64,000 bases of DNA. It comes from Gemmatimonadota bacterium. Its GTDB lineage: Bacteria > Gemmatimonadota > Gemmatimonadetes > Gemmatimonadales > GWC2-71-9. The position numbers and the translations under genes were made by a program. This document shows positions 1 to 5,089 of the stretch, piece after piece (position 1 is the stretch's first letter; every line of letters begins with the position of its first letter). The notes under the pieces were generated by a model, which had not been told where the DNA came from, did not search any database, and worked only from the letters and a program-made list of their open reading frames with translations. The stretch is taken from NCBI GenBank assembly GCA_037440225.1, contig JBBIUN010000011.1, forward strand, positions 20,979 to 84,978, given 5' to 3'.

Positions 1-162
1 CTCGGCTATTATGGCCACCGCGGGGCCGGCCAGCGCCTCCTGCCAGCTCGGGCTAAGAGGAGCCGCGGCCGCCGCCCGCTGGAGCGCGGCCCGCTCGCTC
101 TCCAGCCGGCGCAGGCGCCGCTCCGTGGCGCCGAGGATGTTCTCCAGGAAAGTCGGGCTCAT
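1..162 (-). CDS. trpC: indole-3-glycerol-phosphate synthase, 5' end only (gene runs off left edge)
   Basis: Not in the ORF track. The reverse complement from ATG at 162 reads MSPTFLENILGATERRLRRLESERAALQRAAAAAPLSPSWQEALAGPAVAIIAE. This matches the typical TrpC N-terminal helix plus the 'vIAE' strand. Only 54 codons are visible. Confidence 0.7.
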   Translation of the reverse strand, partial: MSPTFLENILGATERRLRRLESERAALQRAAAAAPLSPSWQEALAGPAVAIIAE

Positions 163-233: not shown

Positions 234-262
234 TTGCGCTTCGGGAGGCCTTCGGGTACATT
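234..262 (+). promoter_or_regulatory. candidate sigma70-type promoter of lexA (TTGCGC-N17-TACATT)
   Basis: -35 TTGCGC at 234-239, 17-nt spacer, -10 TACATT at 257-262, 27 nt before the lexA ATG. The same TTGnnn-N17/18-TAnnnT architecture recurs upstream of other genes in this window. Confidence 0.4.
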
Positions 263-280
263 GCTTCGGCATCTATTCGG
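240..280 (+). promoter_or_regulatory. four phased TTCGG pentamers (two TTCGG-N6-TTCGG units), candidate operator
   Basis: TTCGG occurs at 240, 251, 265 and 276. The two pairs have identical 6-nt spacing (11-bp period). They cover the promoter spacer, the predicted TSS and the 5'UTR of lexA. Confidence 0.35.
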
Positions 281-289
281 TAGCCGACC

Positions 290-898
290 ATGGCCCTTAC
301 CAAGCGTCAAAAGCAGGTGCTGGATTTTATCGAAAGCTATATCCGGACCAACGGTTATGCGCCATCGTTCGACGAGATCGCGCAGCACTTCGCCTTTCGG
401 TCCCTAGCCACGGTCCATGAGCACGTGACCAACCTGGAACGCAAAGGCTACATCACGCGGGCCCACTACGAGAGCCGCGCCATCGAGATCTTGCCCCAGC
501 GAGGCCGCTCGGGTGCCACCGAGCTGCCCCTCCTAGGCCAGGTGGCGGCAGGCGAGCCCATCGAGGCCGTGACCACGCCGGAGACCATCGCCGTACCGGA
601 CGACTTGATCCCCCGGCGAGGGAGCAGCTACGTCCTCAAAGTGCGCGGCGACTCCATGATCGGCGAACACATCCAGGATGGCGACTACGTGGTGGTGCAC
701 GCCCGCCAGACGGCCCGGGACGGGGAAATGGTCATTGCCCTGGTGCACGGTACTTCGGCTACGGTCAAACGGCTGTTCCGGGAACCGGGGGGCTGGGTGC
801 GGTTGGAGCCGGCCAACGAAGCGGTGCCGCCCATCCGGGTGCACGAGGACGACGTGCTGATCCAGGGGGTGGTGGTCGGCGTCATGCGGAAATACTGA
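290..898 (+). CDS. lexA: LexA repressor (S24 peptidase)
   Basis: 202 aa. N-terminal winged HTH (KQVLDFIESYIRTNGYAPSFDEIA), Ala-Gly cleavage site (VAAGEP), catalytic Ser (GDSM) and Lys (TVKRL). Confidence 0.95.
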   Translation: MALTKRQKQVLDFIESYIRTNGYAPSFDEIAQHFAFRSLATVHEHVTNLERKGYITRAHYESRAIEILPQRGRSGATELPLLGQVAAGEPIEAVTTPETIAVPDDLIPRRGSSYVLKVRGDSMIGEHIQDGDYVVVHARQTARDGEMVIALVHGTSATVKRLFREPGGWVRLEPANEAVPPIRVHEDDVLIQGVVVGVMRKY

Positions 899-1931
899 TC
901 TTTCGGTCTGCCGCCAGGCGCTCCAGCAGGGCCCCGGCCGCTCCTTCGTCGAGGGCGGCGGCGGCGCGCTGAGCGCCCTGGGCAACGGAGTCGGCCAGCC
1001 CGGCCACGTAGAGGGCCGCCCCCGCGTTGAGAACCACCGTGGCCCGGCCCACCGCATCCCGCGCCGGCTCCGCGAGCAACCGGCGAACTCGTTGGGCGTT
1101 CTGGGGCGGATCACCCCCCTCGAGGCCTGCCAAGTCGTGGCTGGCCAGCCCTATGGTTCCGGGATCCAACTCCCAGGTGCGCACCTCCCCTGCCCGCACT
1201 TCCCAGACCACGCTGGGCCCGCTGGGCGCGATCTCATCCATTCCCACGCGGGCGTGCACCACCAAGGCATGCTCCGCCCCCAGCAGCCTCAGCGCCTCGG
1301 CCAACACGGGGCCGCGTTGGGGATCGGCAACCCCTACCACCTGCCGCCTCACCCCCGCCGGGTTGGCCAGCGGCCCGATCAGGTTCATGACCGTAGCAAT
1401 TCCCAGTTCCCGTCGCACCGGGGCCACAAAGCGCATGGCGGGGTGGTAGTTCGGCGCGAAGAGAAATGCCATCCCGTCTTCGCGCAAAGCCCGAGCGGCC
1501 GCTTCCGGACCCAGGCCCACGGGCAAACCCAGCGCCTCCAGGACGTCGGCCGAGCCGCACCGCGAGGTGTACGATCGGTTGCCATGCTTGGCCACACAGG
1601 CCCCGGCGGCCGCCGCAACGAGCGCCGCGGCAGTGGACACGTTGAACGTCGGTACGGCTCCGCCGCCCGTCCCGCAGGTGTCAATCACTACCCGGCCGGG
1701 CGGCCGCTCGACCCGGACCATGACCTCGCGCAGGGCGCGGACCGCGCCGGCCAGTTCCTCGGGCGTTTCACCCTTGACGCGCAGACCGGTCAGCAGTGCC
1801 GCGGTTTGCACGCCCGAGACCTCGCCTCGCATGAGCTGGCTGAACGCCCGGGTGGCCAGTTCCTCGCCCAGCGACTCGCCGGCGGCCAGCGTGGCGATGG
1901 CCCGGGCCAAGGGCTGCTCAGCGAGGTTCAC
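882..1931 (-). CDS. trpD: anthranilate phosphoribosyltransferase
   Basis: 349 aa with GTG start. Has the GTGGG PRPP loop, KHGNRS motif and glycosyltransferase family 3 layout. Its 3' end overlaps the lexA 3' end by 17 nt (convergent). Confidence 0.93.
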   Translation of the reverse strand: MNLAEQPLARAIATLAAGESLGEELATRAFSQLMRGEVSGVQTAALLTGLRVKGETPEELAGAVRALREVMVRVERPPGRVVIDTCGTGGGAVPTFNVSTAAALVAAAAGACVAKHGNRSYTSRCGSADVLEALGLPVGLGPEAAARALREDGMAFLFAPNYHPAMRFVAPVRRELGIATVMNLIGPLANPAGVRRQVVGVADPQRGPVLAEALRLLGAEHALVVHARVGMDEIAPSGPSVVWEVRAGEVRTWELDPGTIGLASHDLAGLEGGDPPQNAQRVRRLLAEPARDAVGRATVVLNAGAALYVAGLADSVAQGAQRAAAALDEGAAGALLERLAADRKISISA

Positions 1932-3692: not shown

Positions 3693-5089
3693 GGTTCCTG
3701 GGCCTGTTGCTTGCCGCGGCGGCCCTAGCCGGTTGCGACCGCGGCCCGCCCATTCGAGAGGCGCAAGCCAGCGCCGCGCGGCAGGTTCGAGCGGCCAGCG
3801 AGGCCGCCAGCGCCGCCCGGCGCACGGCCCTGGTGGCGGCGGCCGCGCGGGTGGCTCCGGCCGTGGTCAGCGTGAACGTCATCAAGCGGGAGCGAGAGGA
3901 ACCCCGCACCCCGTGGGATTTCTTCTTCCTGCCCCGCGGCTACGAGCGGGTGGTGCAGGGGCTCGGCACCGGTTTCCTGCTGAGCAGCGACGGCCTCATT
4001 ATCACCAATCAGCACGTCACCGACGGTGCGGATTCCATCGTGGTGACGACCCGGGACGGGCGGGACTTCGACGCGCGGCTGCTGGGGGAAGATCCCTTGA
4101 CCGACATCGCGGTGTTGCGGATCCGGGCCAGCGGCCTGCCCACCGCGCCGTTGGGATCCAGCACGGATCTCATGATCGGCGAGTGGGTGATCGCCATCGG
4201 CAATCCCTACGGCATGCTGCTGGGCAACACCGAGCCTTCGGTGTCGGCGGGCGTGGTGAGCGCGGTGGGCCGCAACTTGTTGCCCACCGGGGACCAGCCG
4301 GGCGTGTACGTGCACATGATCCAGACGGATGCCGCCATCAATCCGGGCAACAGCGGCGGCCCGCTGGTCAACGCCTTGGGCGAGGTGGTGGGAGTCAATA
4401 GCTCCATCTTTTCGACCAGCGGGGGCTCGATCGGGATCGGCTTTGCCATTCCCATCGAGCGAGCCCTGCGGGTAGCGGACGAGCTGAAGCGCTACGGTGC
4501 GGTGCGCCGGGCATGGCTGGGCCTGGACGTGGCCGGCTCCGAGGAGCTGAGGGAGTGGAAGCGGCTGGGTGGGCTTCGCGTGACTCGGGTAGCTCAAGGG
4601 GGCCCGGCGGCGCGCGCCGGCATCGCGGTGGGCGACGTGCTGACGGCCGCCGCGGAACAGCCGCTCCGTACCTTCCTGGACTGGGAGGCCGTCAAGCTGG
4701 ACGTGGCTCCGGGCGACTCGCTGGCCGTCCAAGTGCGGCGAGGCGGCCGGCAGCGATCGGTGAAGCTGGCGGTCGAAGAGCTGCCCACGTCGCGGGCGGA
4801 AAAGGTGGCGGTCTTGGGCGACATGGAATTGGTCACCGTGACCGCCGCGATCCAGCAGGAGCGGGGCCTTAGGGCGGCGCGAGGCGCCCTCATTTATCGC
4901 ATCGGACCAGCGACCGAGGAGGCTACCGGCCTCGCGGCGGGAGACGTGATCTTGCAGATCAATCGCCAGACCATCGCCACGGCCGAGGACGCCCGCCGTG
5001 CCTTCCGGCTGGCAGCCGGCCGGACACCGGTGCGGGTCTATTTCGAGCGCGGCGGCCAGATCGGCTTTGCCGACTTCTACGTGCAATGA
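3689..5089 (+). CDS. htrA: HtrA/DegP-family serine protease lipoprotein with two PDZ domains
   Basis: The track ORF 3353-5089 has its first 112 codons overlapping tal out of frame. A TTG at 3689 (TTGA overlap with the tal stop) gives MRFLGLLLAAAALAGC, a lipobox signal. Trypsin-fold triad context is present (TNQHV, DIAVLRI, GNSGGPLV). Confidence 0.85.
   Translation: MRFLGLLLAAAALAGCDRGPPIREAQASAARQVRAASEAASAARRTALVAAAARVAPAVVSVNVIKREREEPRTPWDFFFLPRGYERVVQGLGTGFLLSSDGLIITNQHVTDGADSIVVTTRDGRDFDARLLGEDPLTDIAVLRIRASGLPTAPLGSSTDLMIGEWVIAIGNPYGMLLGNTEPSVSAGVVSAVGRNLLPTGDQPGVYVHMIQTDAAINPGNSGGPLVNALGEVVGVNSSIFSTSGGSIGIGFAIPIERALRVADELKRYGAVRRAWLGLDVAGSEELREWKRLGGLRVTRVAQGGPAARAGIAVGDVLTAAAEQPLRTFLDWEAVKLDVAPGDSLAVQVRRGGRQRSVKLAVEELPTSRAEKVAVLGDMELVTVTAAIQQERGLRAARGALIYRIGPATEEATGLAAGDVILQINRQTIATAEDARRAFRLAAGRTPVRVYFERGGQIGFADFYVQ

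Follow-up and report, generated by a model that had tools for sequence, protein, structure and literature searches.

A TTCGG-N6-TTCGG direct repeat conserved on the lexA and recA promoters of Gemmatimonadales as a candidate LexA operator

The lexA gene of a Gemmatimonadales bacterium has four copies of the pentamer TTCGG on its promoter, and the question raised by this locus is whether these repeats are the operator of LexA in this lineage and, if so, whether the same site is found at other genes of the SOS response. The window, which is the whole 64-kb stretch of DNA that was analysed, is numbered from its first letter (position 1), and the four copies start at positions 240, 251, 265, and 276 of the plus strand, confirming the description in an earlier note of two pairs with the same spacer of six nucleotides and the same 11-bp period. 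From 234 to 289 the plus strand reads TTGCGC TTCGG GAGGCC TTCGG G TACATT GC TTCGG CATCTA TTCGG TAGCCGACC, and the ATG of lexA follows at 290. The first pair, called O1 here, is TTCGG-GAGGCC-TTCGG (240-255, half-sites at 240-244 and 251-255), and the second pair, O2, is TTCGG-CATCTA-TTCGG (265-280, half-sites at 265-269 and 276-280). O1 plus G256 makes up the 17-nt spacer (240-256) between a -35 hexamer, TTGCGC (234-239), and a -10 hexamer, TACATT (257-262), all on the plus strand and placed as the earlier note had placed them. Its assignment of the second pair to the predicted transcription start and 5' untranslated region also stands: the start is inferred to lie at about 269-270, and O2 covers both this start and the early leader.

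The genes surrounding the repeats are clear from family matches or from an orthologue. The lexA gene itself (290-898, plus strand) encodes 202 amino acids and matches TIGR00498 at E=2e-60, while trpD (882-1931, minus strand), which runs towards lexA and shares 17 nt with its 3' end, matches TIGR01245 at 3e-111. Divergent from lexA, the 5' part of trpC (1-162, minus strand) is cut by the window edge; the resulting fragment of 54 amino acids has no family match, but the orthologue in locus L003 is TrpC at 4e-74. With the trpC start at 162, the trpC-lexA intergenic region is 127 bp long. It also contains, at 200-221, a 7-bp inverted repeat composed only of G and C (CCCGCGG-N8-CCGCGGG), between the trpC start (162) and the lexA -35 (234). 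This stretch has no counterpart in most relatives, in which the trpC start codon is directly beside the lexA -35. Apart from lexA and trpD, for which NCBIfam was used, 40 window genes were annotated with Pfam; they include purine, trp, cell-wall, ribosomal, and tRNA-synthetase genes, and none of those annotated besides lexA is an SOS gene.

The pair is rare in the window and the pentamer is not. TTCGG occurs 156 times against 148 expected, whereas for TTCGG-N6-TTCGG the two strands of the 64 kb give two occurrences, at 240-255 and 265-280, against 0.19 expected from dinucleotide shuffles. A cluster of four TTCGG in 41 bp was reached in none of 300 first-order Markov simulations of the window, the largest simulated cluster being three copies (28 of 300). 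When one mismatch was allowed, the window gave three extra matches, all intragenic, compared with 5.2 expected by chance, and thus no further candidate site.

Conservation was examined in a set of lexA upstream regions chosen through the protein only and not through the motif. A LexA profile was used to retrieve 80 lexA loci, one genome per GTDB species, which together with the window give 81 regions. All 80 loci, as well as the closest LexA proteins, belong to Gemmatimonadales or to Gemmatimonadota MAGs, and LexA identity to the window protein is 63-78% for the 80 loci (63-100% across the 81-region set, window included). Percentages of promoter conservation are given for the 65 unique orthologous promoters, while k-mer and box comparisons use the 81 upstream regions at 110 nt each.

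The common layout in this set is TTGnnn, TTCGG-N6-TTCGG, G, TAnnnT, 2-8 nt, TTCGG-N6-TTCGG, 8-47 nt, and ATG. The lexA promoter of the window is missed by a scan for the strict sigma-70 consensus, which it matches at 7 of 12 positions (the -35 TTGCGC at 3 of 6), and the promoter assignment therefore rests on the conservation of TTG-17 nt-TAnnnT across the 81 regions. In the unique promoters the bases of TTG are conserved at 88, 100, and 88%, 17 nt upstream of TAnnnT, and those of TAnnnT, directly after O1, at 100% (T), 98% (A), and 98% (T). Between these two elements O1 is exact in 81 of 81 regions. O2 is exact in 71 of 81 and the other ten have a degenerate copy, for example TATGG-N6-TTTGG or TTCGG-N6-TTCGC. 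The footprinting of lexA upstream regions proposed in the earlier note thus returns both pairs, with fixed cores and free spacers. The length of the spacer never varies in the lexA regions and its sequence is largely free, the favoured bases being T at position 5 of the first pair (86%) and T at position 3 of the second (98%). The starts of O1 and O2, by comparison, are 24-31 nt apart, most often 25. Since N6 is fixed while this distance varies, the functional unit is the pair and not the quartet, and the two pairs are independent sites.

The same motif is recovered without being specified in advance. In a motif-blind count of 5-mers TTCGG ranks first: none of the 81 regions is without it, and there are 315 copies in 81 x 110 nt. 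The pair is found 150 times in the lexA promoters of the retrieved loci but once elsewhere in their 802,830 bp. Five loci with a degenerate O2 (L029, L031, L033, L062, and L066) form a subgroup with an exact O1, TATGG-N6-TTTGG as O2, TTGAAC or TTGACT as -35, and a leader of about 60 nt; autoregulation may be weaker in this subgroup.

The pair is also found at recA. A metagenome scan for the pair followed, after 80-140 nt, by the RecA N-terminal coding motif GKG[SA][IV]M gave at least 119 high-GC Gemmatimonadales recA genes with the pair upstream, overlapping the recA promoter. Among the matches listed, 119 of 120 are high-GC recA genes whose products are 72-100% mutually identical where the full protein is present; most of these RecA proteins have the N-terminus MSRTLMAA...RKALNLAITQIEKTCGKG.IMRMG in common, and their named relatives in the source databases are Gemmatimonadales. 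The one remaining match, a lower-GC recA of a different type, was taken as a chance match. The scan covered one orientation and one distance range and could return only motif-bearing loci, and recA loci were therefore also picked by RecA similarity alone. Nine RecA homologues were selected in this way, their recA loci were fetched, and the pair is present in 9 of 9. The check proposed in the earlier note, a search for the motif upstream of other SOS genes, is thus positive for recA. One contig of 2,150,939 bp has both genes, with two pairs at lexA (L021) and one pair at recA (L410). Outside the recA promoters, the recA loci have three pairs in 865,790 bp, which is the chance level.

Two layouts of the recA promoter exist within Gemmatimonadales, the site having been kept while the promoter surrounding it was rebuilt. 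In the main group (group 1) the site is TTCGG-T[AGT]TATA-TTCGG, which ends about 26 nt before the ATG and has a -10-like TATATT inside it. In group 2 (L410-L414, L241, L256, and L262) the site is between TTGCTT (-35) and TAGATT (-10) and overlaps the -35. The recX gene is close behind recA or overlaps it, and is probably in one transcription unit with recA. The gene immediately upstream is a UPF0102 (YraN-like) gene in all but one of the neighbourhoods compared (L321-L327 and L406-L414), followed by recA, recX, and, in most cases, alaS. Group 1 UPF0102 genes terminate with ...AFRPGWR* a few bases short of the recA site, so that their last codons form the recA -35 region (TGGCGN).

The recA leader of the main group (L201-L320, for example L201 at 4537-4565) opens with a 6-bp stem, GG[CT]CTC...GAG[GA]C[CT], the 3' arm of which overlaps a Shine-Dalgarno-like GGAGG. 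The stem is conserved with almost no covariation (two pairs, with one compensatory change each) and may be a 5'-terminal hairpin that is stabilising or that masks the Shine-Dalgarno sequence.

The motif is linked to two transcription units only, lexA and recA-recX. A tblastn search of about 1.8 Mb of Gemmatimonadales DNA for UvrA, UvrB, DinB, SSB, and RuvB, with approximate E. coli query sequences, gave only RarA/MgsA-like matches, and no uvrA, uvrB, dinB, ssb, or imuAB-dnaE2 was found in the DNA searched.

The LexA protein encoded in the window is by sequence a canonical self-cleaving repressor, with an Ala87-Gly88 cleavage site, Ser122, and Lys160. Alignments with solved LexA structures span the whole protein (3k2z at 2e-34; 1jhh, from E. 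coli, at 1e-27). The recognition helix S38-H45 (SLATVHEH), A87-G88, S122, and K160 do not vary among 34 homologues whose identity is otherwise 73-100%, and an invariant recognition helix matches an invariant half-site. Of the four helix positions with which E. coli LexA contacts bases, three are different here (N41 to A, A42 to T, and E44 to H), the list of contacting residues reportedly being that of the paper on the 3JSO structure, and the helix resembles its counterpart in the Gram-positive LexA from Bacillus subtilis, SSSTVHGH. The linker is ordinary and exceeds that of E. coli by four residues. In alphaproteobacteria, the LexA proteins that bind direct repeats have about 230-240 amino acids, some 30 residues more than the protein here. 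Because LexA in the window has 202 amino acids and an ordinary linker, in contrast to these longer proteins, a head-to-tail geometry is not self-evident.

The known SOS boxes resemble the TTCGG pair in different respects. E. coli has two adjacent operators on the lexA promoter and one on recA, and the layout in Gemmatimonadales is likewise doubled at lexA, single at recA, and over the core promoter, with the same Ala-Gly/Ser/Lys self-cleavage chemistry; the E. coli box CTGT-N8-ACAG, however, is a palindrome with a sequence unrelated to the TTCGG pair. The Gram-positive Cheo box, GAAC-N4-GTTC, has a half-site that also holds TTC, but it is an inverted repeat with a centre-to-centre distance of 8 bp and shows no enrichment in the lexA promoters of Gemmatimonadales. 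In the 81 lexA promoters, CTGT-N8-ACAG and GAAC-N4-GTTC are matched at best no more closely than in shuffled sequences, and their best matches in the window have four and two mismatches, respectively, in agreement with the earlier note, which had recognised neither palindrome.

The alphaproteobacterial box GTTC-N7-GTTC is, like the TTCGG pair, a direct repeat with an 11-bp period and a TTC core on the promoters of lexA and recA, and it is bound by a canonical self-cleaving LexA, which is also the type encoded here (PMC3323433, PMC9578287). It is found in Rhodobacter, Caulobacter, and Sinorhizobium, and also in Acidobacterium capsulatum through lateral transfer of lexA (PMC3323433, PMC9578287). 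The leading G of GTTC is conserved in that box, whereas the base preceding TTCGG in the 315 copies of Gemmatimonadales is unconstrained (C in 101, G in 90, A in 87, and T in 37) and the GG following TTC is invariant. The motif cannot therefore be read as a degenerate GTTC box of the alphaproteobacterial type, and the exact GTTC-N7-GTTC is present in 14 of the 81 lexA promoters only. The earlier note had proposed a direct-repeat LexA operator with a divergent half-site, read as NTTC (CTTC-N7-CTTC and CTTC-N7-ATTC). The direct repeat is upheld by its presence at both lexA and recA, and LexA is presumably the protein that binds it; NTTC has to be replaced by TTCGG as the half-site.

The Balneolaeota motif TTACACATATTTTWTACATA is another direct repeat at the level of a phylum, found by motif discovery at lexA promoters and then at recA (PMC7739468). 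Its sequence is unrelated, with AT-rich TTACA-type units; EMSA confirmed the motif, and translesion polymerases belong to its regulon (PMC7739468). Direct-repeat recognition by LexA is reported to have several independent origins, Balneolaeota among them (PMC7739468).

If the motif is read together with its positions, then TTCGG-N6-TTCGG is very likely the LexA operator, or SOS box, of Gemmatimonadales, double at lexA and single at recA. That it would be a functional operator common to lexA and recA, whichever protein binds it, can be held from sequence comparison with very high confidence. Two identical 5-bp half-sites with a fixed N6 and a spacer of free sequence have the two-part symmetry that fits a dimeric repressor, and the sites overlap core promoter elements in every layout at lexA and recA. 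The two genes are the core of the SOS regulon controlled by LexA (PMC3323433), and direct-repeat LexA boxes are established in other lineages (PMC3323433, PMC7739468, PMC9578287).

The sequences themselves establish the motif, where it lies, how well it is conserved, that it is specific to the lexA and recA promoters, and that LexA is intact and canonical. From these we infer that LexA is the binding protein, that it binds head to tail, that it represses, and that damage induces. The proposed operator would be a 16-bp direct repeat with half-sites 11 bp apart, or about one helical turn, and each pair would presumably accommodate a single LexA dimer whose two winged-helix domains sit head to tail along one face of the helix. 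At lexA, O1 in the -35/-10 spacer and O2 over the transcription start would act as two independent operators, and from this placement bound LexA would block both the binding of RNA polymerase and initiation, giving tight autoregulation. At recA-recX there would be a single operator, either enclosing the -10 in its spacer or between the -35 and the -10. Upon DNA damage, RecA filaments would trigger self-cleavage of LexA at Ala87-Gly88 and the lexA and recA promoters would be freed. Ten fixed bases amount to about 20 bits and about ten chance copies per genome are expected from the rate in the window, so specificity must also come from position or additional contacts.

Other proteins, and other roles for the repeats, have to be weighed against this reading. 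OmpR/PhoB-type regulators typically bind direct repeats with a period of 10-11 bp, usually upstream of the -35 or overlapping it. A regulator other than LexA, for example a winged-helix response regulator of this type, could accordingly bind the TTCGG pairs and control lexA and recA from above: an 11-bp direct repeat is the classic signature of tandem-binding winged-helix proteins, and the LexA of this lineage combines a Gram-positive-like helix with an ordinary short linker, features usually tied to palindromic boxes. Such a regulator is nonetheless unlikely. All 81 regions have the motif on the promoter of lexA, most of them twice, and it recurs at recA, the two genes being the core LexA regulon (PMC3323433); the sites overlap core promoters as repressor sites do and are not upstream of the -35; and direct-repeat recognition by LexA has several origins (PMC7739468). 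In 1.8 Mb of Gemmatimonadales DNA no other regulator, response-regulator genes included, is associated with the motif, and another regulator is less parsimonious than LexA. In the unlikely event that this alternative were true, Gemmatimonadota would have a LexA-independent master switch for the response to DNA damage. The repeats could also be elements of promoter architecture, read by RNA polymerase or by a particular sigma factor and not an operator, as O1 fits exactly into the -35/-10 spacer and the pair of recA group 1 embraces the -10. This is very improbable given that the pair takes four positions relative to the -35 and -10 (in the spacer for O1, over the start and leader for O2, around the -10 in recA group 1, and over the -35 in recA group 2), that the O1-O2 distance varies by up to 7 bp, and that neither the window nor about 1.7 Mb of Gemmatimonadales DNA has the pair at any other promoter. 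An ECF-type promoter was rejected as well.

The neighbouring trp genes suggest a further role, at the level of RNA or for trp expression, in which the repeats would act as CCGAA on the other strand, in the leader or ribosome-binding region of trpC. The trpC start codon does abut the lexA -35 in most loci, which puts the repeats in the 5' region of trpC on the minus strand. However, all 80 loci have the pair, whereas a divergent trpC upstream of lexA was detected in only 57 of them (74 of the 80 have at least 900 nt of upstream flank), and the same pair is at recA without a trp neighbour. A role in RNA is further opposed by the position of O1, upstream of the inferred lexA transcription start, and UUCG tetraloop hairpins are unsupported, as the closing base flanking TTCGG varies; we regard this explanation as extremely improbable. 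Close to negligible is the chance that LexA in fact binds GTAC-ATTG-CTTC at 256-267, as a degenerate palindrome of the Gram-positive or cyanobacterial type, and that the TTCGG periodicity is incidental. GTACATTGCTTC at 256 is two mismatches from GAAC-N4-GTTC and the recognition helix is Gram-positive-like. Against this, the box does no better across the 81 orthologues than in shuffled sequences, its left arm amounts to the variable bases inside TAnnnT and is not at a fixed distance from O2, and the recA promoters are without such a palindrome. The repeats are not an iteron or other tandem array either: the pairs stand at a variable 24-31 nt enclosing the -10 and their spacers are not repeated. 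Arrays with a TTCGG core at an 11-bp period do occur in phage contigs of any GC content, some of them at contig ends, and are generic tandem or iteron arrays. Double-pair matches in viral contigs (at least 120, L081-L200) were set aside as uninformative, the permuted 5-mer TCGTG giving 78.

The LexA operator remains the preferred reading, and its position beside the trp genes has a possible consequence of its own. The lexA gene is antisense inside a trp cluster (1-1931 of the window; 3906-7690 of L003), the minus strand having trpD, then lexA on the opposite strand, then trpC and trpB. The tail-to-tail overlap of lexA and trpD (882-898) has its counterpart in the convergent arrangement of L003, and trpD is convergent downstream of lexA in 43 of the 80 loci (71 of which have at least 1100 nt of downstream flank). 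With the trpC start beside the lexA -35 in most loci, the trpC promoter or leader must overlap the candidate LexA operators on the opposite strand. LexA bound there could obstruct transcription that reads through from trpD into trpC, and a protein bound at the lexA-trpC sites could gate trpC-trpB, thereby coupling tryptophan synthesis to DNA damage.

No published description of a LexA motif or SOS regulon of Gemmatimonadota was found in open-access full text. TTCGG-N6-TTCGG appears, as far as sequence can tell, to be a new LexA-binding motif that belongs to the known direct-repeat class and characterises an order, and its range probably extends to a larger part of the phylum. As a result it is solid and, for the field, incremental; it does not describe a new kind of system. 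LexA is one of few transcription factors with a motif that has changed repeatedly across phyla, and each newly defined LexA motif is a data point on the co-evolution of regulator and regulon. If the reading is true, Gemmatimonadales would add another and apparently independent change from a palindromic to a direct-repeat box, made by a LexA of ordinary length with a Gram-positive-like helix. For Gemmatimonadota, a phylum widespread in soil and freshwater, the pair would serve as a pattern with which thousands of MAGs could be screened for the SOS regulon, mutagenic polymerases and prophage induction included.
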